From contig NC_057719.1 in assembly GCF_004010195.1 (NCBI RefSeq), positions 41,175,318 to 41,228,120 on the forward strand: DNA of 52,803 bases, given 5' to 3'. Of this stretch, positions 10,853 through 52,803 are shown one piece after another. The first letter of the stretch is position 1. Each line of letters starts with the position of its first letter. Source of the DNA: Chiloscyllium plagiosum (taxonomy: Eukaryota). The position numbers were made by a program, and so were the translations under genes. The notes below the pieces were generated by a model. That model had not been told where the DNA came from and searched no databases. It saw only the letters and a list, made by a program, of their open reading frames with translations.

Positions 10853-13489
10853 AGGCTACAGCTGAGGTAGAGACTGATTGGATTACTGTCCAGACAGCCA
10901 ACATGTTGTCAATGGGCTGATTGGCCTCATTCAGTGTTGTAATGACCCTATAAGCTCAATTACCATCTCAGCTAAATGTAAAATAGCCTGTAGCTCATTA
11001 TAAACAGAAGTATGGGAGCCCTTGCCAATTTTTATCAATCCATTAGCACCACTAAAAGAAAGATTAGCTGGTATCTTACTACATTGTTCTTTATGAAACT
11101 CAGTTGGCTCCTGCGTAACATATTTCGTTGGGACATCCTGGTGGACATGTGTGGTGCCACAGAAATGCAATTTCTTTGTTCTTTTTCCCTTTCATCAATT
11201 AGTCTTGTAACTCCTAGACTATGTCTCTTACATTTCTGAGTGAAAGCCTACTCAAAAATTCTTTCATTCATTCATCTCTGTAAATAAAGTCTCAGCTTAA
11301 AAAATACAGCAACAACTATTGACGTGATGCCACAATCAATTAATGTGCTGATATTCTCAGGTCTATGTGTAAACACTTCAGAACAACAACTGGCCATGCA
11401 TAGAAGCAAGTGAGGAGAATATTAATGTTTCACTAAATTATACAGAAATGGAGAGGGGGGAATAAGACAAAAGAGAAATATATGGAACTTTTGTATTATT
11501 GTAAAGTTAGGTCTTAAACTGCAGTAAAATGACAGTATAATCCATGCAAGTCAATTGTCATAGATGTAAATTCCATAAACTGTTCATGAGCTGTGCAATA
11601 TCTATCTCTTTCAGTATTTATTGGGGTAAGTAAATCTAGTTTTGAAATGGAAATGATATACTTCACTAAAGAGATCATCTTCATCAACATTCCCACTGCC
11701 AGGAGAAACTATCATGTTTGTGATTCACTCGAACCATAAATAGAACACAAGAGAGACAAAGGGTAAACTTGAAAAGACAATACTTCTTTGTTGGTCTCTT
11801 AGCTCCACAGTCAGTTTTTACATTTCCTCCCTTAGCGCCCGCCTCTGGGTCACCTGACCCATTCTTTTAAAGGGGCAGCACACTCTTAACTTCACATAAC
11901 AGAATCATTAAATGATTATCTGTGACATATTATTATGTTTCATTTATGGCATAAATTAAGGCTTTCGAAATATTCCGTACCTAGGAAATCTCCAACCATC
12001 AAATAAGATAATTCACATTAGTGGTAATCGTTCCTTAAGCTAATTTTAAGATAATTGTTTAATTCTAAGAAAAAATCAATTCAACTATCCTTTGCAGTGT
12101 CAAGGTACCTACATCAAGATCTAAAAACATGAAAATTTTGACAACTCTCTAGCATCTACAGAACCAACACTTTAATATATATCACTTTAAATAAGCTTCA
12201 CAGAGGCAGAATCAAATCAGAATCAATGCGAAGCCAATGTCTGTAGGAAGTTAGAGAATAGCACACCTTTACCTTTGTGAACTTGGAGTCCATCTTCTTC
12301 CTAGATTTCAAAGTTAATGTGATGGACAACTATGATAGCACTTAGGACCTTTTCTTCTTGTCTTCAATTCTAGTAACACCTAATGGCTTCGAACACTTCA
12401 AAAATTGCTTGAATCCGGGAAATCACTAACTCCTCACAGTTTTGTTGCGAGGTTTCGCCAAAGGAGTTAAATGCTTAAAGAATATTTGTGCTGCAGGTCC
12501 TCAAAGACTGAGCTAAACTGCTTTGTTTTTGATATTCATTGCAAGTTCATTTACCACAAAATTATAATAACAGCCTTGATATGAACTGGAATATGATCTC
12601 CAAGTGCAGGGTTGGGAAAAAGAGTTCTGATCAGAAAACAGAGGTCTGGATTCCCCAGAACATCACTGAAGATTAACTCCAAAGATGTGTGTTATTTTTT
12701 GAACAGATATCCTACCTGGTGCCAGGGTCTTTGTCAAGGTTATTGCTTGCTGGGTGACAAAAAGTCTAGACAAGCAGATAAGTTTAGTGATTGTTGGTGG
12801 CAATGGTTCCCAGCTGATGTTGGGGCTAGTGTGGTTGGGAAGATCATGAGGTGTGTGTGGGAGGGGATTATAGAGGGATGAGGTTGATTACAGGGAGTTA
12901 TAACACCACTGTCAGTATGATATGATCTGAGTGCTCCCTATATGTGAAGACTGAATTTTTTGCTGAGACAGATCTCTTGAAGTTTATTACTAATTACATA
13001 GAACAAATAAAAAAAAGGAAATGCAAGTAGACTGTCATTATTACAACTATTGCTATGACTGGTATTAGCTACTGATGGTATTGGAACTGCACGTGATGAC
13101 ATGTACAGTCTTAAATGTAAACTGTCTGTTTGGAAACTATGAAATAATACAATATCTTCTCTTTTTTTTCTTTCAAGAGTACAAACTTTTCTGATTAGCA
13201 AGAATACATACAAATATATCATCTTCATACATTGAAATAAAACTTTGGTGAATTGACACAACTGGATCTAGTCATTATACAGTTATCATGACTTAGCTGT
13301 GTAGCTTCACTCTGGAATATACTATCTGTCATCACAAATGGATGTGCATCATTTGTCGTAGATATGAAGTTGCCATCTGGCACTAACATAACAAAGTCAG
13401 TTATATAACTTAGCAGGTGTAGCAGTATCTGTAATGAGTAAACAGAGTGAACATTTGGAGTCCACTAACCAGTTCTGATGAAGGGAGTG

Positions 13490-27599: not shown

Positions 27600-28180
27600 T
27601 GGCCACTTTTATTTTTTAAGACCCTAGGATAAAATCCATCAGGATCTCAGAACTTGTCATCCTCCAGCTACAACAATTTGCTCAGTATCATTTCCTCAGT
27701 AATGTAATATTCTTGAGTTCCTGCCGTTTTCTGATTTACAGCTATTTTCTGGAATGTTACTTATGTCTGTCATAGTGTAGACTGATGCAAAAGATGTGTT
27801 TAATTCACCTGCCATTTCATTATTTGTCATTATTTATTTCCAAGAATCAGTTTTTATTGGACCAATAACTGCTTTATTAGATGTTTTTCTAAATATCCAT
27901 AGAAATGTTTACTTTTTTTATATATATCCAACTAGCTTTCTCTTGTACTTTATTTTTTTCCCTCCTTGTTAATCTTTTTGTCATTTTTAAAAAACAATTC
28001 TGTCAAATCTTTCAATTTGCTGACCAGCTTTGCACAATTGTATGTTTTCACTTTAAGTTTGGTATTTCCTTTAATTTTTTTTAGATTGTCACAGATGGAG
28101 GCCCTTCTCTTGGAATTTTCTTTCTCTTTGAATTTTCTTGTGTGATTCCCTAAATGCTAGTTCCTGTTTATGTGCCATTT
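27600..28180 (-). mobile_element. Old CR1 ORF2 fragment
   Basis: KF*DPDGFYPR (KSPGPDG motif) and AGELNTSFASV-like segment. Confidence 0.7.
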
Positions 28181-28676
28181 TAAGTTAGAAATTCCACATT
28201 CAATTTTAAAGAATGAATTACTTCAGCGATGTCATGTTTTCTTGGGACTAAATTCATTGGTATTCCAGTATTGACAGGTTCAAATTGTTCCTTCTCCTTC
28301 TAACTTCCTTTTTCTCCTGACTTGCGCCCTCTTATCTCTACCCTTCCACCTTATTGACTCAACCTTTTCCCAGCTTGTGGCCTCCTGATTCTCCTATCTT
28401 GCAGCTTCTTTGTTTGCTCCCCATCATTTGACGACAACTCCTTTTACCCAACCCACAGCAACCAGCCCCTTTCCCCTAAACTCTGTGCAATCTCCTCCTT
28501 TCCCCATCAGCACCTTGCAATCTGCTCCTTTTTTGTCAACCTTCATAGCTTCCTTCTACACCTCCAACTCCTTGCAGTCTCAGCTATACCCCCATGTTCT
28601 TGCAGCTTTCTCCTTTCCCCCACCACGTATTGTTGCCTCCTTCTTTCACCCACCTTTTTCTGCCCCCTGAAGGCTT

Positions 28677-28714
28677 AGTTCCTGATGAAGGGCTTTTGCC
28701 CGAAACGTAGATTT
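28677..28714 (+). ncRNA. Minimal type I hammerhead ribozyme motif (PLE-associated)
   Basis: CTGATGA(28682-88)-A-GGGC-TTTT-GCCC-GAAA(28702-05)-C-GTA; palindromic ACGT in place of stem III; weak stem I agttc/gattt. Confidence 0.78.
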
Positions 28715-28806
28715 TGCTGCTCATCGGAAGCTGCCTGAATTGCTGAGCTCTTCCAGCACCACTGATCCAGAATCTGGTTTCCAGCATCTGCAGTCATTGT
28801 TTTTAC
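28683..28806 (+). mobile_element. Solo PLE terminal-repeat insertion with 9-bp TSD CTTAGTTCC (28674-28682 / 28807-28815)
   Basis: Homologous to the 9092-10852 termini; direct flanking repeat visible. Confidence 0.88.
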
Positions 28807-28971
28807 CTTAGTTCCAGAAGAGCCCAGCAACCCACAGACTCTGGTTCTGAGCTCAGCAATTCTTGGGACCTGGACCAATTTTCACAGCCTTAAGACCCAG
28901 ACCTGAACAATCTGAGGCCCAACCACATGTTTAGTAATCCCTGAGACTCAATTTCACACTTGATAACTTGG

Positions 28972-30443: not shown

Positions 30444-30890
30444 GAGGCCCAAACCTATGCTCGGTATCCCCTGAGGTCCCAACCCAGCTGACTGTAACCC
30501 CAGCAATTTACTCACCACTGACATTTCAATGTATCCTCCATTCACATCCTGGTTCTCTCCCACCCTTGACGCTGGTAGCCTTACTGTGAAACTATCATTG
30601 GAAAATGTGCGAGACACAACATCACTCATTGGAGTAGGAGCTCCTCACAAATTCTGTCATTCTCATGTATAGAGACAACCTTCTTCAAATTGGTTGCAGA
30701 GAGATGCAGCTACCCAAGCCAGGGTCTCAAATGGTTAGCACCTAGAGCCTGTGTCCTTCAGCAACCCTGGACCCTGGAAGATGCACTATTGGCAGCAGCT
30801 ACTGCCTCCCAAGTGACACTGTTGAGTAAACACAGTTGTTGGCCTCTGATTTGGCTGACAGCTCTTGGGGACAGCATTTCTGCCTCTGTG

Positions 30891-31009
30891 AAGGGCTTAT
30901 GCCCGAAATGTCGATTCTCCTGCTCCTTCGATGCTGCCTGACCTGCTGCGCTTTTCCAGCAACATATTTTTCAGCTTTGATCTCCAGCATCTGCAGTCCT
31001 CACTTTCTC
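30891..31009 (+). mobile_element. Solo PLE terminal-repeat insertion with 11-bp TSD CTGCCTCTGTG (30880-30890 / 31010-31020)
   Basis: aagggcttatgcccgaaatgtcgattctcc...ctgcagtcctcactttctc; begins inside the hammerhead core. Confidence 0.9.
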
Positions 31010-31199
31010 CTGCCTCTGTGGAGAGCCCACCACTAGCTGGTTAATGATTTACACTGTATGTGGTGGGTCTTCACAAGAGCAAGTTTCAAGGTGCTCTCAT
31101 CAGCTTTCCAGCCAGTGTGTAAGACACATGTTGCTCACACTAAATTCTACCCAACATAAGATAACCACCTGCTTGTTTTCTTGGTGAATGGGTAAAATA

Positions 31200-31459: not shown

Positions 31460-33345
31460 CTAGAACAATATAGCGCAGTACAGGCCCTTTGGCCCTCGAT
31501 GTTGCGCCGATCCAAGCCCACCTAACCTATACTAACCCACTATCCTCCATATACCTATCCAATGCCCGCTTAAATGCCCATAAAGAGGGAGAGTCCACCA
31601 CTGCTGCTGGCAGGGCATTCCATGAACTTACGACTCGCTGAGTGAAGAACCTACCCCTAACATCAGTCCTATATCTACCCCCCCTTAATTTAAAGCTATG
31701 CCCCCTCGTAATAGCTGACTCCATACNNNNNNNNNNNNNNNNNNNNNNCCGCACTATTTACTTGGGTGGCAACTTTCAGAGATCTGTGTACATGGACACC
31801 AAGATCCCTCTGCTCATCCACACTACCAAGTATCCGACCATTAGCCCAGTACCCCATCTTTTTGTTATTTTTCCCAAAGTGAATCACCTCACACTTAGCT
31901 ACATTGTATTCCATTTGCCACCTTTCTGCCCAGCTCTGCAGCTTCTCTATATCCTGCTGTAACCTGCCATATGCTTCCTCACTGTCAACAACTCCTCCGA
32001 CTTTTGTGTCATCCGCAAACTTGCTCACCCAACTTTCTAACCCCTCTTCCAGGTCATTTATAAAAATGACAAACAGCAATGGTCCCAAAACAGATCCTTG
32101 CGGAACACCGCTAGTGACGGCACTCCATGAAGAAACTTTGCCATCAACTACTACCCTCTGTCTTCTTCCATCCAGCCAATTCCTAATCCAAACCTCCAAC
32201 TCACCCTCAATGCCATATCTCTGTATTTTCTGCAGTAGCCTACCATGGGGAGCCTTATCAAACGCCTTACTAAAATCCATATATACCACATCTACCGCTT
32301 TCCCCTCATCAACCTCCTTCGTCACCTTTTCAAAGAATTCAATAAGGTTTGTGAGGCACGACTTGCCCTTCACAAAGCCATGCTGACTATCCTTGTTCAC
32401 ATTATTCCTATCCAGATGTGCATGAATCCTATCCCTTACAATTCTCTCTAAGACTTTGCCCACAACAGAAGTGAGACTCACCGGCCTATAGTTACTAGGG
32501 CTATCCCTACTCCCCTTTTTGAACAAGGGAACCACATTTGCTATCCTCCAGTCTTCTGGGACTACTCCTGTAGACAAAGAGGACATAAAAATTAAGGCCA
32601 ATGGCTCTGCAATCTCCTCCCTTGCTTCCCAGAGAATCCTAGGATAAATGCCATCAGGCCCAGGGGACTTATCTATTTTCACCTTTTCCAGGATTTCCAA
32701 CACCTCTTCTCTACATACCTCAAAGCCATCCATTCTACTTATTTGTGACTCGGTATTCACATCGACGACAATGCCCTGTTCCTGAGTGAATACTGAAGAA
32801 AAGTATTCATTCAGTGTCTCCCCAATCTCTTCCGCCTCCACACGCAACTTCCCACTACTATCCTTGACTGGTCCTATTCCTACCCTAGTCATTCTTTTAT
32901 TCCTAACATACCTATAGAAAGCCTTAGGGTTTTCCCTAATCCTATCTACTAAGGACCTTTCGTGTCCCCTCCTTGCTGCTTTTAGCTCTCTCTTCAGGTC
33001 CTTCCTGGCTACCCTATAACTCTCAATCGTCCCAATTGAACCTTCACGTCTCATCTTGAGATAGGCCGCCCTCTTCCATTTAACAAGGGATTCCAATTCC
33101 TTATTAAACCACGGCTCCCTCGCACGACCCTTTCCTCCCTGCCTGACAGGTACATAATTATCAAGGACACTCAATAGTTGCTCCTTGAACAAGCTCCACA
33201 TATCATTTACACTCTTGCCTTGGAGTCTACTTTTCCAGGCCACACATCCTAAGTCATGCCTCACCGCATCATAATTTCCCTGACCCCAGCTATAACTCTT
33301 GCCCTGCAGTGCACACTTATCCCTCTCCATCACGAGAGTAAAAGT
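31460..33345 (-). mobile_element. Young 5'-truncated CR1 LINE
   Basis: Long uninterrupted ORF2 frame, C-terminal TRGHSFKL..FFTQRVV, 3' UTR; small N gap at 31727-31748. Confidence 0.96.
31749..33333 (-). CDS. CR1 ORF2 reverse transcriptase domain (partial open frame, lacks endonuclease)
   Basis: KSPGPDGIYPRIL, NYRPVSLTS, QHGF, DFSKAFD, GVPQGSVLGP, FADD all intact over ~525 codons. Confidence 0.88.
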
Positions 33346-35649
33346 ACTCTTCGGTCCATCTGAGAAGGCAGGTGGAGCCTCAATTTATGGTTTCATCTGT
33401 AGAAGAATTGAAACAACTGAGATAGGAATTAAGTTATTTTTTAATAATGGATGTGAATCTTTAGATTGAAGTATTATGGCAAAGATTTCAATTATGAAGA
33501 CATCATTTTGAGTGTCAAATCTGATCTAGATCAGATCAGCTTGGGAACATGACAATTTGAGCTCGAATTATAATGCACTGATGATTGCATGCATATGAGT
33601 TGGGAAGTCCTTGAGTATTTAACCAGCTGATATGATATTCCTCAGATAGTATCACCAGTAATCTGTGGTACGACACGTTCTTTCCTTAATTAGAAATTTT
33701 CCTGATCAAATTGCTGAACATATTTAAGTATATACAGTGCCTTAAGTACATGACAAGCACCATTTCACAAATGCACTTCTTGGTTGCACTTCTAGACATG
33801 TCTTTGGGATCTCTGAAAAGGATATTAAGGGTCAGTCTGAAGCTGTAGTGAAGATAAGTCAAACTACATCTCCCACCGGGTGATGGCTGCTGAAAGTACT
33901 TACAATGATTGTGATTAATTTCATCAGTACACAATTTGCTTTCATATTTTCTTCCTTTTCTGTCTGCACAGAGGTAATTTTGTTCTCACAATGAATTCAG
34001 CATGACAGTTTAATTGGCTCAGACAAGCTTAAGTCTGAAATGAATCTTTAATATTAATATGCTATTGACCACAGCTATGGATTAAGCAAACTAAGGGCAG
34101 AGTAAGTGAATGATTGAAAAGGATTTTTGTGGTTAGCTTGAAGATTTACAAACTCATGGTTGATAATCAAGTAAATTATTTTCTCATTCATATGCAGTAT
34201 TTGCATGGGAGTTCTTGGCAGAGCAGTTACCTTTTATAGTGTTTTTTTCTTAAAGACATACGTATCACCTTGTGTTTCCCTATTGCTCAGATATTATTTT
34301 GATCTTTAGAAAATCTATACCTAACACTTGACGACTCTTGGACAATGCACTTTTGCTTCAGAACAACAGCTACTCAAATACACATTTGACAATACCGTGA
34401 TGCCACTGTATTAAAGTTCTAAATAAAAATATTTCACTAGGATTTCCAAAACTTAGTATTTCTATTCGCATTGTGAAATAATAATGCCTAATGTAAAGTT
34501 ACTGCCCACAGGAGACAATAGTCAAGATTCAGCGATAGTATGTATCTCTTTAATATAGCTTTGGATGATTGGCCAATTACGTTTATTTCAAAATTGTTAT
34601 CATATTCTTCTGATATTTATTGGCTGTTTCTTTTCATTCCTACTTTATGGTTAAACATTTGCAAAAATTGAGCTGCATTTGTTTTCTACCTCTAGTCAGC
34701 TAATGCAGATGTCGCATATCAGTGATTGAACAAAAGGAGGAGGCCAGTCATGCATACCAATATACGCTACACCCTCATTAGAACAAGCTCATGAAGAGAC
34801 ATGTGCTCACTGTGCTTTAATGAGGTGCATACTGGAGTGAGGATCTTTTAACACTGCATAGAACACAGCATGAGCAATTTGGTAGCCAGGGCCTGGTAGA
34901 CTTATTAGAATTGGGACAGTGCTGTCACTGGGACCCTTATAATGAGGTGGCATGGAGGAGTTTATCCTGTCCAGGAGGTGCTTATTAGAAATATTCAGTT
35001 TTATTCCATGGGATTTTGTGGTAATTTGTGTGTCTTGCTCAGCATTTGTTGAGAATTTGAAGTTCCAACTGTACAACATGCCAGTTGTCATTTAATGTGC
35101 TGATCCTGATTAGAAATAATCTCACTTCCTCAGGAAGAGATTATTACATCAATCACAGTAAATTTCTGGGGTTCTGTTATTCAGATACAATACTATTAGA
35201 ATGATACTTGCAGCCTGACCAAACATCACCCAAAAATAATCTTTGCTAATGAATCTTCCCATATGAATGGAATGAGTCTTATGATAAATAATACTACAAT
35301 TATTAAACCACATTGTGTTAAGAAATGTGTCAAGCAAAAAACATTGTGACCACAACCATTTTTCTCTAACTGATTGTTGCCATAAAGCAGTGAAGGCAAG
35401 TGGCAAAGCTGAAGCGTTTGCAGCCAAAAGTATGCTGTCCTACTTAACCTCATCCCAAAATCCTCACCTCATAGCTACCAGTATCCAGGTAAGACAGTTC
35501 ACTGCATGTGGTATTAAAGCTGAATATAATAATGAGAATAATGAATCCTACATGAATCACAGAATGTAAAGCAGTTGAACTCCTGTCACAAAACCATTCC
35601 AGTAGAGCCAAGACACTGATATCTAGGCCTACTGTTTGGAAAATTATCA

Positions 35650-36120: not shown

Positions 36121-37464
36121 GATATGAGGTGGAATCTTCCCAGCCACTGAATGACATGGGTATTGGTGAGAATGTTGGAAGAATCATGAGAGATTTGCAG
36201 TAGGAGATTCCCAATATTGAGAGCAAGCCAACTTTTCCAACCAAGTGTTGAACGGTGAGATGGGATTCTTACTAATGAGCAGCAAGGGGCCTGTGTGCAT
36301 GCAATAACATGCTCATTCCTGCCCACTCTAGCACCCATTGGATAGAAACTAGATGGTGACAATTCCTGACCTGAAAGGCAGAATGACTACTTGAGGACTC
36401 CATCTCACCACTTGTTCCTCCAGCTTTCTCTCCTGGACACTAGGCAAAACATTTCTTGCACACTCCATTGGCAATAACTGCACACCACTCCAGTCCACCT
36501 GTATCCCGCTTTATCATATGCCTGGGCAGTTAACAGGAATCACATGGGGCAGCAGCAGACTGCCAGGGCTTAGCTGGATACACAGCAAAGCTTTAACAAT
36601 GGCATCAGCATTGTTAATCCCAGAATGTCCTGGCAGTGGCCATTACTTCTCTCTGTGGCAAATGGGAGAATATGACAAGGGGGGCCTCTCAATTTGAAGG
36701 TCAGTTTATAGGATTAGGCACAATGCCTTCAGAGGTATTGTGAGGTAACAACCTGAGTTTGTGAAGATAGTGTGAGAAAACCCATTTGGGCTCAGGGAGA
36801 AAAACTGTCCATGAAACTTGCCAAAATTGATTTCTGGCAAAACTCAGTCCATGGAATTAGAAGTTCAGTTTTTGTTGAAGAGGTGCCTATAAAACAAAGC
36901 AATAAGGAGAATCTCTGCTAACACAATTATATTGATCTCTGCCATTTTCAAAGGTCAAATATGATGTTTAATTACATTGAAATTTATGAAGTAATTCTGA
37001 GACGGATTTATCTTTGATTGCTGTAAGATGTGTAAACTGTCTTTCAGCTATCACAATGGTCTGTAGAATAAAACTTAAAGGAAGCATAAAGCTAAAGTAA
37101 GACCTGGTAAGCATCAGAAGTGCCTTGTTCCTCTCATTGTCCCTAAACAATGCCTCCTATCCAGATGTATAGTCTGGGTTATACTTGTCATGTAAGTGTG
37201 AACCAAACATGTCCATTGAGACCTTCCCTATCTGGAAACAAGCTACTAACACTGTTAGCAAATGAATCCCAGTTCATTGAAGTGGTATTCCCCTCTTTTT
37301 TTCAATCAACCTTCAATTATCATAATTTCATACAGAAAAGAAAATAACACCTCACGGGTGTATCCAAAACTGCAAAGGATAATACACCCGACTATCACAA
37401 TTAAACTGTCATATTGTTTTACCAATTGATCTTCAAAAAAACCTGACAACATGATGGAGCTGAG

Positions 37465-37621: not shown

Positions 37622-39134
37622 ACAAATAAACATGTGATATTAAGATTTGAAAGCACGTAAAAGCAAAACTGCTGAAACAAAATATATAAGAGTGGCTTAG
37701 CAAAATGAAATTCACCAAAGAAAAGGCAGAGCCAAAAGGAACAGCAACCCGAGGAAATTGGTGAAAATATGATTCACTTTTACATAATTGTAGTATTGGC
37801 TTTGCAAGGGGAAACAGAGAAACATTATTGTAATTTCAGTGGCAGCTTTTCTGAAGGCATTGTGCCTAATCCTATAAACTGACCTTCAAATTGAGGAAAC
37901 GCCCGGCAGAAGATTCTATTAATAGTTCTGTTTGCTTGACTTCTAAGCAATAAATAGTGGGAATTTTGATTATCGGATACAGCCATCTTGTCTGCATAAA
38001 AGTAATGCATTCTAATAATATGGTGTATTGTTTAAAATTGGTAGGGGGAGAAAGGTGTTGGGATTCACCAAGTGATTAAAATAAGCCCATAAGCAATGTT
38101 ATAAAAGGATAATAAAATCTAAATCTCATTTGTTCCACTTCAGTTTCTTCATATGCATAAAACTCCATAAAAACAGCATCTGTGTTCAAATAATGAGCTG
38201 AAAAGACACTGCACAGTTGCTAATTCGATTTACATTCTTAAGCTCATTGTTCCATATACATCTATTGACTAGGTATCTGGCCTAAATATAATGCTTCAGA
38301 AGTAAACGGGAATTAAAAATGGAGCGATTTAGTTACTATGATGAGATTAGTAAACAGACTGACAGTACAGTGAGCTGTCAAGTGCAGTCAGATATTGTCT
38401 GACCATATGAATTGTTATTGTCTTTCCAATTTATTACAATTTTGTAGAACAACATTTTATTTTGCTGTGTTGCCAATAAGGGTCTTTTCAGCTTTTCTGA
38501 GTGGACTTCTATCTCATTTATAATTTCTGACAAGGCAGATATAGAATATAGATAACTCCCACTGAATGAATGACTGCAAAAAGTATTTGTAGTGAAAAGA
38601 AAGGAAAGCAGCAGCGATGTGTTAGGGGTCATTAATTTTGGCATCATTTTCACAGGAGAGCATAGAGTATACTGGGGGTGGAATGGTCAGTATTTTTTCA
38701 CAAAGGGGATGCGTATTGAGAGTCAGCTATTGCAAAGCAATCTTCTGCACATGCCTTAAACTCACCAATTGTGCAGACAGAAGTGAATTATAGGCTATTT
38801 CCTGCCATCCTGTGACTATACCATTGGTTATATCAAATGTTGTGGGTTATTAGCATTTTAAAAGATTTGAAAAAATTGAAACAATGTTTGATGTGAAAAA
38901 GAGAAATTATACTATATGATCCATTTGACAACATGATGGGGAATTGGATAGCAGAATAGTGGAATGAATATCAGCATGAGCAATTAGATATTAGAGCAGT
39001 TCAACAGCTAGCAGTATGAGCAATTTGAAATCACAGCAGTTGAATGGATATCCATAATAAAAAAAACCTGAGAAATGCTGGAAACACTCAGTGGGTCAGG
39101 TAGCATCAATTAAAGGAAAGAGAGAGAAGGCATA

Positions 39135-42656: not shown

Positions 42657-45238
42657 AGTCCTCTGGACCCAATATTGAATAGGTTTGAAGTTGTAGGGAT
42701 GCTGGGATGCTGAAATTCTGATTGGCAAAAATGAATCTGCTGGGTCCTGTCAGCAAATAAATTGTGGCCATTGCAGAAAGAGAGTACAGTTTTTCCCAGG
42801 TCTCTTCCTGACCCAAAGCTGCAGCTGACATAAAATATATTTCTCAGTTTACACCATGTGCTGTGGAATAAAGCGTGATTGCAACACTCATAAATTATTT
42901 GATACTCTGCATAGACATGTACACTGCACACAACCTTACAGTTCATAACTCTTTTCGAATTATGTAGCAATTTAACATTACCTTTATCCTTTCACTATTT
43001 ACTTGCTTAAAGAGACTTTTGGAGTCCCCTCTGTGTTGGCTGCTATGTGTCTTTTCATACTCTTTCTGATTTATATTATTAAAGAAGTCCTATTTATATA
43101 TGAAAGTTAAAAGTCTAATCGTGTGCTTTCAGTATTGTTCATGAAAATTCACTGGATGACATTTTTAATTTGAGCAAAATAATTGATTTGCATATGGTAA
43201 TAAGTAAACGCTGAAATCAGAAAGCCTCAGTTGTATGAAGACAGATCCCATGACACTTATGCCTTTTGCAGATTGCGGAACATGTAAAGGAATTTGAACA
43301 AAGCTTGAAAGAGAATTAAAAATAAAAGTGACTGAAAGTTATCTAAATGCAAAAACCTTGTCAGTAAACAATTGTGTTTCAGTACACAAAATAATGATCG
43401 ACACTGGCTGTTTAATGACTTTATTATATTCAGGCTATCACCACAAACAGTGAACAAAAAAGCAACATTTCATAGACATTGGAATTCTAAACTAAATACA
43501 AAAAGTACTGGCAGCATCTGCTAATAGTCATTGCTTCTGGTAGATAAAAAAAACTATTCTTAGCACTGAAGGGAATTAAAGATAAACCAAGTTTAAAAAG
43601 AAACAAACCCAAAGAGGAAGGAGAAACACATTCAAACAAACACAAGTGCAAAAAGGCCACATATAAGAAACAAACATGCAAAGCAAGTGAAGCAACGTCC
43701 TCAAGTGTTGAAGGAAGAGAGTTGATAATTTGAACCAAAAGCAGAATTATGAAGGGAGAATTAATAACTTCTGAAGGTGAATTAAGAAAAAGAGTAAATG
43801 GATGTGTCTTAGATAAGCAACTGACAAGTTTGGGTGGTCCGCGGGGGTTGGGGAGGTGCGCATGGAGAGAAATAGAAAATAGAATGGCTATCGACAGAGC
43901 TCACGAGGAGAGCAGCTGCATCATAGTACTGCCAATTTAATGCCACTAGTTTCTAAATAAAGGGGAAATTGTAAAAAGAACAGCTACTTAACACAATGTT
44001 TAAACAGCATCATTGTGTAATCTTTTGAACTTGTTCAAATGTTTATGATCTGGAAGGGTATTTAATTCCAGAAAAACAATATTTAAATTTCACTTTGATG
44101 GATTGTCTGAAAATTTAAAATTATTAGATAAACTGAAAGAAGTAATTGCATGTCATTGAGAAAAATGGCTTGTTTAGTGACTACATTCTACTCTTACCTA
44201 AAACAACCACAGTGCAGGTACTTTATTTATAATAAAATATTTTCCATTACTCAAATCATTTTATAACATTGAAGTTTACTACAATGTTAAAATACACATT
44301 AAGCTTCAAGTTGCTATGTATTAAAGGAGATTGAATTAGCAGACTCATTATTTGAACAACAAAGATATGCAACAATAAAATGAAGACCTTCCACTCTGAT
44401 TGAAAGATACAATTGTCATGGTAACATTATACGAGGAAGGACAATCACTCAACTGTTGCTATGAGAACTCATAAGTAATTACTTGAACAGGAAGACTGAC
44501 CATAATGTAATGTCAATATTTATCACTGTATATCAGCTTTTCTCTCACAATACTACATAAAGAAAAAGCAAGTGATGGCAATCCATAAGATGGTGTGTTG
44601 GCAATATTCTGCATAATTTCAGGGACAGAAGAGAATGTCTTTGTTCATGTTGGATTGGGATGGCGTTTGTTGGAGAGGAAGAATTACTCCTTTGGGAAAG
44701 CCTAAATGTTCAAGTAATCATTTGTAATAATGAAAAACAGAACAAAATGGGGCATATATTTGTGGAATTTCTCAGACATATTTGGAATAATGGTTAGTTT
44801 AATAGGATATTTAACCCTATTGTTAGGACTGGGTTCATTGTACATTACGAGTCTCCTATCATTTTTAAGTGCTCTCGTAACACGTGCATGATGAAACCCA
44901 ATATGTGATAATAAAATTGTGTATTTCAGTATAGTGCAACTGTCATGAGTGCGGAGTGGAAATATTTAATGTAGTGTTTTTTTAATCTAAAAAGTGCATT
45001 TTGCAAAGCCTAACTTGTATTGTTACTTCTCCTTAATCTAAGCTCTGCTTATTTTGTAACCTTAATCTAAACAATCCTGTCATTATAAAGTGAGAACCCT
45101 GCTGGAAAACGCAAATATAAAGGCACACTTCCATTTTCTTTCAAGCAAAATAGAACATTTAATGTGAGGTTTATTGCCTTAGGCAACTCAAGTTTTGAAG
45201 GTTAGACTATTCCTTATTTTCAGCTGGGAAACACAAAT

Positions 45239-45343
45239 GAGTAGTAGTGAATGAATAAATAAATAGTAGTGAATAAATAAGTTGTAGTGAGTAAATAAGT
45301 AGTGGTGAATAAATGAGTAGAAGTGAATAAATGAGTAATAGAG
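45239..45343. repeat. Degenerate ~18-bp tandem repeat
   Basis: About 5-6 copies of gtagtagtgaataaat(a/g)a. Confidence 0.65.
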
Positions 45344-46844
45344 TTTAAATTAATACAATTGAATAAATTTACCACTGTGTGCTTCAAATAACAAATATTA
45401 TTGAAAAAAAAAATCAGAACATTATTAGTTTTTGATCCAGAAGGTATCAATTAATTAATTATCACCCCAATCTGCAGAATGCAATATGCTGAATGAGATC
45501 GCTATGTAGTCATTTGATCACAAGTCAGTATTTTGTAATTCCTTTGATGAGGAGTTCTGTACTGTAGATCTTATACTGAGCATCATTTGGTCCGTTCAGT
45601 GCATTGATTGTCTGCCATTTCTTGCTGGATGAACACTATCTGCCGTCAGAAAAGGATCTCTCTGTGAGAAGCCGCTCTCCATCTGTCAGGAGCAATTTGT
45701 CTCATTTATCACTCGTATCATATTAGGGTGTAGTAAATGTGCCAATTAATGCTGTAAACATTGATTTAGTTGGAAATTGATAAAAATGAAGCAGCTATAT
45801 TCATATGTCACAAAAAATTTAAGTCTGTGGATACTGACTGATTTGCCTCATTGACTTCAATTACGAACCCCCCTAGGTTGGATAAAAAAGGGAGGCAAAG
45901 TGCTTTGTATGAATCATGTGGCATTTGTTAAATGGCTGTTTCTTGAGAAACAAAATATTTTTATCATTATAAATTCAGAGCAGGATTTAAATAACTTAAC
46001 CTATTACTGTAATCTCAGAAAGTCAGGATTTTCAAAATTTGAAGGAGATGCATTCTCTTTCACTTAGCTTCTTGCTCAATCGATCTGAACTCAGGTTGAG
46101 AGGAGAGATAAATGACTATAAACATTTCCTTTGCCTCCGCTTAAGCTTCTTGAGAGTCGTTGAGTAAAAAGTGAAACACCTGTTAAGTTAATTCTCTCCA
46201 GTCGGAGAGGCACTTTGGCTTTGGTTGATGTTACAGTTATTGACTCCACTGAAGCCGGTGTACTTTCTGTGGAGTCCATGTGAAACAGCTATTTGACTGG
46301 CATCATTACTAAAGGCTATATGATCGCTAACAATAAGGTAATCCATTAATAACACTAATAAACTTATCAAAACCACTTTAGTGAGGATATAATGTCACTT
46401 ACATGCCAAGAGAGAACAAATTGAGCTATGGATAGACACACAAATGACACAGTAATATGCTGTAACAATGTAAGTGTCTATTCCCTGACATTTTGGATCG
46501 TTTATTGCTCAAGCTATTTTTTGCTATTAGTCTGAAAAACTTGTGAAAAGAGATTGTCATGGTCCTGTGCCTATGGCTATTGTCACCTGGGCAAAATGAA
46601 TATAGATAAACCAAATGCAGACCTGTACAATAGCTGGCCTGATTTTCTTGTTCATTGTTTTAAATGTTAGAAAAACCGTGCACCCAATTTTCCTGTACTT
46701 GTCTAGAAATCCTTTGCTTACTGATATAAGAAGAAGAATGTCTACCATTTATGTCTTTTTGCATCTGTTTACCCTTCTGTTTCTTCTGTGACAAACTTAT
46801 GATGGTTAACATGGTGGTCAGTCGTTGAGGTAAATTGACATAAA

Positions 46845-47985: not shown

Positions 47986-48034
47986 AAGAAAAAGGGAGAA
48001 ACCCTGAGATGTTTGAATCAATGAGATGAGTTGA

Positions 48035-48120
48035 AAAAAAGAGAGCTGGAGGAACACAGCAGGTTTAGCAACATCTGAGGACAGAAAAATGTTATAGTTC
48101 TAATGACCCTTCATCAGGAG
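48035..48120 (-). mobile_element. Degenerate PLE terminal-repeat fragment
   Basis: gctggaggaacacagcagg...gacccttcatcagg (reverse complement CCTGATGAAGGG). Confidence 0.6.
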
Positions 48121-49135
48121 ATGGGTACCTGTCTCTGCATGCAAAGTATTCTTATAGCAGCATTACAGTGAAAGGTGCCAATGCAATCCAAAGTGCATCA
48201 TTACAGAGAAATAGGGACAGGATTAAGACATTTGATCCTTCAAGTTTGCTTCACTATTCATTATGCTCATGGATGATCATCGAAGTGGAGAACTGTATTA
48301 TAAGTGGACTGGAGATGTGCCACGATAGTGTCAAAGGTGAGGCTGACATGTGTCCGGTGGCAATCTCTGTGGATCAAGAGCGTGGGTGGTGATTGCACAT
48401 GGATTGTGTCCTGAGATGTTGGCGACTGCTATCCAAGATGGAGGCCATCAGAGAGCTGCAGTCACCAGGTTACCTGCTCTGACTTCCATGTTTGGAATTA
48501 TCACTGTCTCCTTTCTCTCATGGTAGAACAGGAAATACATATCAAACTAATTCACAATTGCCAACATTGTTCAGAGGCTAAGAAGATTCTGCCCAAGGTT
48601 TTCAACCTGTTTTCCTACATCATTAATTTACAGAGATTCAAGTCCAGAGAAAGTATTTATCTTTAACAAATCCTTATGTTCTAAATAACTGGTGCACCCT
48701 AGTTTGTATCCTGTGAACTATGGAGTGTTACATAAATATTTACAAAACTGAGAGCTTAGATTTTCTCAGTTTCTAATAATTTGAAGATTTCTAGCCAAAA
48801 TCTTATGGTTTGAAGCCATACAAACTAAGCTTTGGCTGAGATAATTGCTCTGAACTGTTGAATCCTGAACTGCTCTGAAAAGTTCCTTTCCAGAAGAGAA
48901 ACCACACTTGCTTTTGACCCTGGTCAGATCTCCTTTAAAGTTTTTAAACACCAGTCAGTGAGTAGGAGACCAGGAAAGGTTTGCATTTTGGTTGGATGAG
49001 GTGGATGAGAGACCTTGAGTGGACATGATGCACAAAAGTTCTAGTTCATGAGCCATGGTGAGGGGAGTGTGCAGTTGCTGAGTTAAAATGAGTTTTGGTT
49101 TTATGAATATAAAAGTAGCAGAGAGAAATTGTGGG

Positions 49136-52519: not shown

Positions 52520-52803
52520 AGGTGCATCAATAAGTGTGAGGACTGTGTCTGGTGCAATCAATAGGTGCGAGAACTGTCCCAGGTGCATCAATAGGTGTGA
52601 GGACTGTGTCTGGTGCATCAATAGGTGTGAGGACTGCATCAGGTACATCAATAGGTGTGAGGATTGTATCAGGTACATCAATAGGTGCGAGGATTGTATC
52701 AGGTTCATCAATAGGTGTGAGGATTGTATCAGGTACATCAATAGATGTGAGGATTGTATCAAGTTCATCAATAGGTGTGAGGATTGTATCAGGTACATCA
52801 ATA
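52520..52803. repeat. 30-bp minisatellite, at least 9 copies, runs off the window
   Basis: Unit ATAGGTGTGAGGATTGTATCAGGTACATCA. Confidence 0.97.

Follow-up and report, generated by a model that had tools for sequence, protein, structure and literature searches.

Minimal hammerhead ribozymes (min-HHRs) have been described in the terminal repeats (pLTRs) of metazoan Penelope elements (PLEs) (Cervera and De la Pena, 2014, PMC4209133). According to the available text of that study they occur in fishes, coelacanth, frog and reptiles, mostly as single scattered copies from truncated PLEs, and single min-HHRs show no cleavage while dimers cleave little (PMC4209133; review PMC6765202). Sharks are not named in that text, the supplements of which may list shark motifs, and a literature search on Penelope, ribozyme and shark returned no shark PLE ribozyme study by title or abstract. 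For the Poseidon element PAc of Anolis carolinensis, the sections available of Frangieh et al. (2024, PMC11167929) report a ribozyme that is inactive alone and cleaves with its own protein, insertion that does not need cleavage, with no read ends at the cut site, and reverse transcription that starts 111-118 nt into an ORF beginning at stem II. Non-LTR retrozymes, in the available text of Li, Clavereau and Pollet (2026, bioRxiv 10.64898/2026.07.22.740005), consist of at least two consecutive units, each with a complete hammerhead; one of nine Xenopus dimer elements cleaved, and retrozymes are reported in one chondrichthyan genome, for which the supplements may name the species or family. The canonical type I hammerhead has a 6-bp helix I that makes loop contacts with helix II, and its helix III is capped (PMC4209133). 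The role of PLE hammerheads is described as unsettled in the text available (PMC8557442).

A hammerhead motif in Chiloscyllium plagiosum

All coordinates below refer to the window, the whole stretch of 52,803 nt of Chiloscyllium plagiosum DNA that was analyzed. The motif at 28677-28714, part of a repeat copy here referred to as 28682+, consists of the following elements:

28677..28681, + strand: stem I 5' strand, in which 28677-28678 are host-site letters (alignment, folding, loose family reads before 28679)
28682..28689, + strand: first box CUGAUGA and one additional base between position 9 and position 10.1 (sequence, descriptor scan)
28690..28701, + strand: stem II of 4 bp, capped by a UUUU loop (folding of four spans, with pair probabilities of 0.88-1.0)
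28702..28709, + strand: GAAA, helix III ACGU (28705-28708) and position 17 (A28709; family majority C), with the nominal cut after 28709
28710..28714, + strand: stem I 3' strand (folding; P of the first pair 0.08 for the 38-mer and 0.0 for 28660-28815)

Each part named by the initial annotation (CUGAUGA, extra A, hairpin, GAAA, ACGU and GUA) was found in its place. On the + strand, the first core box CTGATGA (C3-A9) at 28682-28688 is followed by the extra A at 28689, and the stem II hairpin GGGCTTTTGCCC at 28690-28701 is closed by G10.1-C11.1. The second box GAAA (28702-28705) runs into the palindromic minimal helix III ACGT (28705-28708), and the triplet GTA ends at 28709. The two strands of stem I (28677-28681 with 28710-28714) give C-G, U-A, a U.U mismatch, G.U and A-U, that is, 4 of 5 pairs with one wobble and two contiguous. 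The locus carries CUGANGA and GAAA boxes, U16.1-H17, G10.1-C11.1 and a palindromic 15.2-16.2 without a helix III loop, all features of minimal hammerheads. The ATG in the first core box opens a 17-codon frame spanning the ribozyme (28685-28738, +); a role of this core ATG as a PLE start codon was rejected for the 28685 frame, which stops after 17 codons.

Both strands of the window were scanned with a minimal-hammerhead descriptor, the strict version of which demanded a palindromic 4-nt helix III and a stem II of at least 4 bp. Relaxed rules returned four loci (28682+, 9213-, 29767- and 31103-) and strict rules returned 28682+ alone; this sole strict match supports the earlier assignment to type I minimal hammerheads. 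The hammerhead search suggested as a check in the initial annotation had a divided outcome, positive with our own descriptor at 28682+ and negative with Rfam, where no hammerhead family was among 11 matches up to E=10 in the window.

The Rfam result would be in line with a chance arrangement unrelated to hammerheads, as would the lack of covariation: changes on both sides of a stem were seen at 0/7 pairs in the five copies of the window, which as young sister copies provide a weak test, and among the variant rows listed C28693G is present without a change in its partner. The absence of covariation in five young window copies does not refute the motif class. Against a chance origin, strict matches are expected at 0.047 and 0.040 per window (150 simulated windows each, order-2 and order-4 Markov models), and the motif lies where PLE hammerheads sit.

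Loci with the same architecture in metagenomes also argue against chance, pairing at positions that the search had left free. A degenerate scan of metagenomes gave at least 120 loci with at least 121 matches, and pairing was analyzed in 120 loci with enough flank. Among the matches listed, stem II pairs 3-4 were paired in 90% (48% in shuffled sequence) and stem I pairs 1-3 in 82% (43% shuffled); in 69 family representatives among these matches, the values were 86% vs. 44% for stem II and 76% vs. 43% for stem I. These contrasts are inflated by relatedness and some matches are decayed or chance occurrences; pairing across unrelated hammerhead families is clear. Furthermore, 4/120 of the metagenome loci among the matches listed have a related GIY-YIG on the same strand, in three cases 224-355 nt upstream of the motif. 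The motif at 28677-28714 is a real minimal hammerhead arrangement, and coincidence is an extremely improbable explanation for it.

Among the metagenome matches listed, none resembles the Chiloscyllium repeat beyond the core, and the exact 27-nt family pattern had 0 matches in viral contigs and 0 in metagenome contigs. In the same set, A17 occurs in 2/121 natural motifs, a 4-bp helix II in 38/121, and a stem I of at most two contiguous pairs in 47/120. One metagenome locus (L118) has two minimal hammerheads on opposite strands, an inverted arrangement of the kind described for PLEs.

The repeat family and the insertion at 28679-28808

The window is repeat-rich DNA with several LINE-type RT remnants. 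A full-length 5S rRNA match (169-287, +, 110.8 bits) adjoins a 555-N assembly gap (368-922); it could mark the border of a 5S array or else represent a young 5S copy. At 31696-33384 (-) a 562-aa open frame (RVT_1, E=1e-35), with a 22-N gap at 31727-31748, represents a young LINE remnant, putatively CR1-type. Perfect 46-nt inverted arms (36688-36733 and 37850-37895, 1116 nt apart) may mark either an inversion or the termini of a young DNA transposon, and tandem arrays lie at 52527-52796 (period 30 nt) and 45234-45377 (period 18 nt).

BLAST and profile searches of the 52,803-nt window recovered five close copies of the repeat, 7588-, 9213-, 10760+, 28682+ and 30885+, with the following features:

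28679..28808, + strand: solo 5'-truncated PLE terminal-repeat (pLTR) piece, about 130 nt (loose read ends, mixed flanks in three runs)
28674..28682, + strand: upstream copy of the 9-nt target-site duplication CTTAGTTCC (two + strand occurrences in the window, no more)
28807..28815, + strand: downstream copy of the 9-nt target-site duplication, the first 2 nt of which overlap the family 3' end
30880..31020, + strand: nearest same-strand sister, 2.2 kb downstream, truncated inside the first box (11-nt target-site duplication)
7461..7602, - strand: sister copy with G12A and C15.2U (alignment)
9090..10207, - strand: longer sister copy with PLE RT-end, linker and GIY-YIG remnant, then the repeat with core 9213 (tblastn, Pfam)
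10184..10870, + strand: inverted 5'-truncated partner of 9090-10207 with decayed core 10760 (inverted repeats, tblastn)

The initial annotation described 28682+ as the only copy in the window to keep both boxes, the ACGU palindrome and a fully paired stem II. This is true among the five close copies, stem II of 28682+ being Watson-Crick throughout, because each of the other four has a broken box or a lost palindrome, mostly through CpG-type changes: G12A and C15.2U in 7588-, C11.1U and G16.2A in 9213-, G8A, C11.1U and G16.2A in 10760+, and loss of CUGA with C15.2U in 30885+. Two further relatives were observed, an older diverged one at 48029-48124 (-) that keeps CUGAUGA and the A, with stem II and the second box broken, and a partial, older one at 39076-39107 (-).

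A PLE origin of the repeat, also proposed earlier, is supported through sister copy 9213-, which lies beside an RT/GIY-YIG remnant. In tblastn the protein P0001 matched 10207-9360 (E=5e-66), covering the RT end, linker and GIY-YIG domain, and the 9213- core follows 147 nt behind the end of this match on the same strand, placing the repeat in sense to the ORF; 28679-28808 itself has no ORF. The window remnant has 74% identity to a Chiloscyllium punctatum protein, and its Pfam GIY-YIG match (E=0.0017) is below cutoff. In P0001 the RT precedes a C-terminal GIY-YIG in which two cysteines separate GIY from YIG. Because both the RVT_1 and GIY-YIG Pfam matches of P0001 are weak and below curated cutoffs, the PLE call is based on the combination of motifs, domain order and arrangement. 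The CX2-5CxxC linker before the endonuclease, which in the available text of PMC8557442 marks Neptune and Nematis PLEs, is complete in P0001, with its last Cys altered in the window remnant. Linker and domain order, taken without an RT tree, suggest that the repeat family is an EN+ PLE of Neptune/Nematis type. The two copies at 9090-10870 form a head-to-head pair, with a 1.1-kb 3' remnant (-) and a shorter inverted copy (+) overlapping near 10184-10207, and such inverted pairs have been described for PLEs (PMC8557442, text available).

At the locus itself, the duplicated sites enclose an insert proper of 28683-28806, and 28679-28808 shares 78-81% identity with the four other window copies. The nearest sister is 2.2 kb away, in agreement with the earlier description as a solo copy. 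The upstream duplication contains the entire stem I 5' strand plus core position C3, and its last 4 nt (28679-28682) also match family sequence, constituting a junction microhomology. The earlier view that stem I is weak and partly built from flanking DNA therefore holds, with the flank part being target-site duplication. At least 9 nt were shared by chance in 54 of 20000 random pairs of 25-nt windows. Target-site duplications were found at 2/3 solo copies examined (in the 30880..31020 copy, 11 nt at 30880-30890 and 31010-31020); a search for duplications of at least 6 nt at 7588- and at the outer ends of the inverted pair found none.

Reads and contigs of four runs were placed on 28150-28960, with 80% likeness required. 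The family records span 28679-28808, beyond which they continue into mixed flanks on both sides. One contig from run X13, possibly the assembly source, equals 28150-28705 without a difference, confirming the 5' junction, and the 3' flank is uncovered in X13. Summed X13 depth was 0.5-2.7 million on the repeat and 9.8 on the flank, a ratio of about five orders of magnitude that is a summed depth and not a copy number; the family is a very abundant repeat. Loose ends behind 28808 start with AGTT in both X13 and the RNA reads of run X17, at low overall agreement, and AGTT is also found in the duplicated target (28806-28815); in this one case, the target may itself have served as primer through a short match to the template. 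RNA reads and X13 contigs contain joints at which the strand switches, from 28679 to 28684 and from 28679 to 28690, showing that other places in the genome have head-to-head junctions located right at the core. The pyrimidine-rich flank at 28290-28678 was considered as a PLE 3' UTR and rejected: its alignments to five upstream regions scored within the range of shuffled sequence (scores at least as high in 60-255 of 300 shuffles), and its X13 depth is single-copy.

Among the five copies the position of the 5' end varies, the extremes lying within box 1 and over 1 kb upstream, and the 3' end, at +119 to +121 from A9, is common to 4/5. The scissile bond is contained in all five copies, in keeping with reverse transcription of uncut RNA (PMC11167929, sections available). 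Taken together, we consider 28679-28808 to be very probably a 5'-truncated EN+ PLE end-piece that was made by target-primed reverse transcription, has drifted and is most likely inert. By analogy, the minimal hammerhead of an active master element would most likely cleave weakly, as an ACGU dimer or aided by protein. An endonuclease would have nicked the target, priming would have taken place at the fixed 3' end of the family about 120 nt behind the core, reverse transcription would have passed through the still uncut ribozyme site, and the cDNA would have joined the target at the 4-nt microhomology just before the core, leaving the 9-nt duplication. The junctions and duplication are observed; from them we infer that uncut RNA was copied by target priming and that the copy was truncated early at its 5' side. 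After insertion, the copy would have drifted by about 5%, C17A among other changes, with the core so far escaping CpG decay.

Alternatively, the 130-nt piece could represent one monomer unit of a family that is non-autonomous (a non-LTR retrozyme or SINE-like) and makes a short or circular RNA of its own. The flanks at 28679 as well as at 28808 are mixed in many family records (agreement 0.34-0.42), one X13 record joins 28793 to 28679 via 17 letters, a partial tandem, and retrozymes are derived from pLTRs according to the available text of bioRxiv 10.64898/2026.07.22.740005. However, the locus has no tandem, the window copies differ in their 5' ends whereas 4/5 have the 3' end in common, and loose ends at 28679 are forced by the reference and do not reveal where other copies begin. 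A non-autonomous monomer is in our view unlikely, and the truncated PLE end-piece is the preferred reading.

The family reads also identify which letters of this copy are its own. At 28709, C was found in 563 and T in 104 of 675 X17 RNA reads, and C makes up 82% of X13 depth; because family reads carry C here, the GUA of 28682+ (A17) is a private change of the family GUC. Among the rows listed, the majority further differs from this copy at 28716, 28723, 28729 and 28746 in X13 and X17 alike, with 28740 and 28764 added by X17 alone, for a divergence from the family majority of roughly 5%. The intact fraction, calculated as the product over six core and stem II positions, was 0.59 (X13) and 0.46 (X17), values that assume independence and are biased to young copies. 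Intact cores are usual in this family, at about half of the family sequence, and 28682+ is not special, contrary to what had been proposed. G12, the general base (PMC6155905, available text), was changed as often as its CpG neighbor C11.1 (7.7% vs. 8.1% in X13; 80/665 vs. 72/664 in X17), which fits neutral decay after insertion. A depletion of intact cores in RNA relative to X13 was dropped as uninformative, since non-core positions were raised as much (G28726A, 15.8% vs. 4.5%).

Predicted folding, partners and transcripts

Stem II is predicted to be stable (closing pair G28690-C28701, P=0.88-1.0), and the pair probability of stem I was at most 0.085. In 28660-28815 the mean probability of box 1 being unpaired was 0.05 (95% paired), the predicted partner being:

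28721..28727, + strand: predicted pairing partner of the first core box, which it would sequester (folding; depends on the minority base A28723)

Freeing both boxes was calculated to cost 4.7-7.7 kcal/mol in three spans of the 28682+ copy, 1.6-4.7 with one or both of two private letters at the majority state, and 1.1-6.9 in sister copies, energies that omit tertiary contacts, Mg2+ and protein. RNAalifold with the five window copies recovered stem II and the core-sequestering helix, not stem I.

The initial annotation had predicted cleavage after 28709 with activity uncertain. From the geometry of a dimer, the bond after 28709 would be cut by the core of the partner, and likely cleavage at this position is not supported, as a partner core is needed and 30885+ has lost its first box. 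No intact same-strand partner is present in the window, where 30885+ without CUGA is the sole same-strand neighbor; the mixed helix III of the 28682+ core with the 30885 copy has an energy of +0.1 kcal/mol, and the active-dimer fold reaches -10.9 vs. -15.8 kcal/mol for two separate stem II hairpins.

In X17, no RNA reads were found outside 28654-28821 on the unique flanks (13 million records), in a shallow sample of about 2% of one poly-A single-cell run; a second run of this sample (X18) placed 0 reads and provides no test. Family RNA of both orientations was present in X17 (1085 reads placed), and therefore partners in trans exist. Read ends did not accumulate at the cut site, a result not counted as evidence because the poly-A single-cell library does not preserve cut ends. 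A Pfam scan identified no host exon among 208 of the 210 frames of at least 62 aa, a length at which short exons would be missed; it returned retroelement domains and four weak matches below cutoff, nothing else.

Could 28682+ nevertheless be a working ribozyme, its + strand transcript pairing through ACGU in trans, or in cis with 30885, perhaps with PLE protein? Every core position is intact, stem II is stable and family RNA is there. C17A need not be harmful, because GUA is a naturally used, fast triplet (PMC3138052, text available), the 30885 copy keeps GUC and could pair with A15.1-C15.2 of the 28682+ core, and protein-assisted cleavage is known (PMC11167929, sections available). The predicted unpaired stem I and sequestered box 1, the unfavorable dimer and mixed-helix energies, the loss of CUGA in 30885 and the lack of both flanking X17 reads and a host exon stand against it, and we regard a working ribozyme here as quite unlikely. 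A target-completed ribozyme, in which the insertion would have ended exactly at the core and the host site, once duplicated, would have provided a stem I equal in quality to that of the family, is very unlikely. The flank-built stem I (4/5 pairs, one wobble) is no weaker than in sister copies that keep their own 5' strand (at most 3/5). If it were true, and given a host + strand transcript, the 28682+ core could cut the 30885 GUC after 30912 as a one-way cis heterodimer, or alternatively the 28682+ site could be cut by family RNA in trans, and scattered solo copies would be conditional cleavage sites in host RNA when PLE protein is present. Considering the missing cis partner, the 2-bp contiguous stem I, the sequestered box and the lack of any sign of an own transcript, the 28682+ copy is most likely inert.

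Significance and comparison with known systems

The locus itself matters little: the motif is known, the repeat is very abundant and this is a single copy undergoing drift. Its importance would rise only with a demonstration that solo copies cleave transcripts of the host. It does preserve a clean record of PLE integration, with a fixed 3' end, a ribozyme site copied uncut, junction matches and a 9-nt duplication, in agreement with in vitro work in which insertion does not require cleavage (PMC11167929, sections available). Young tandem copies of the family would be a better test substrate than the solo 28682+.

Two described classes were set aside. The canonical type I hammerhead was rejected on helix I and III, by folding and Rfam. 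Non-LTR retrozymes share a type I hammerhead in a short pLTR-related unit; their units are tandem, whereas 28682+ is solo and flanked by a target-site duplication, the sister nearest to it being broken, and the class was rejected for lack of a tandem at the locus.

With PAc, as far as the available text describes it, the family shares a minimal hammerhead about 110-120 nt before a fixed 3' end and copies that derive from uncut RNA. The family here differs from PAc in its Neptune/Nematis CX2-5CxxC linker (P0001), in a core ATG that opens 17 codons whereas the PAc ORF starts at stem II, and in junctions that both match the target shortly whereas PAc primes without homology.

Compared with the PLE min-HHRs of PMC4209133 (available text), the motif is alike in being type I, in both boxes, the nucleotide between 9 and 10.1, G10.1-C11.1 and the palindromic 15.2-16.2. 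Helix I of the class is short, about 4-5 bp; here it is interrupted by the U.U mismatch at pair 3. The motif differs in a helix II of 4 bp vs. 7-8 bp in Schistosoma families, in A17 by private change, and in a helix I 5' strand located inside a target-site duplication. Judged from its sequence, 28677-28714 appears to have the testable features of a metazoan PLE minimal hammerhead. On the published description available, it is a PLE minimal hammerhead of an already known kind (Cervera and De la Pena, 2014, PMC4209133).
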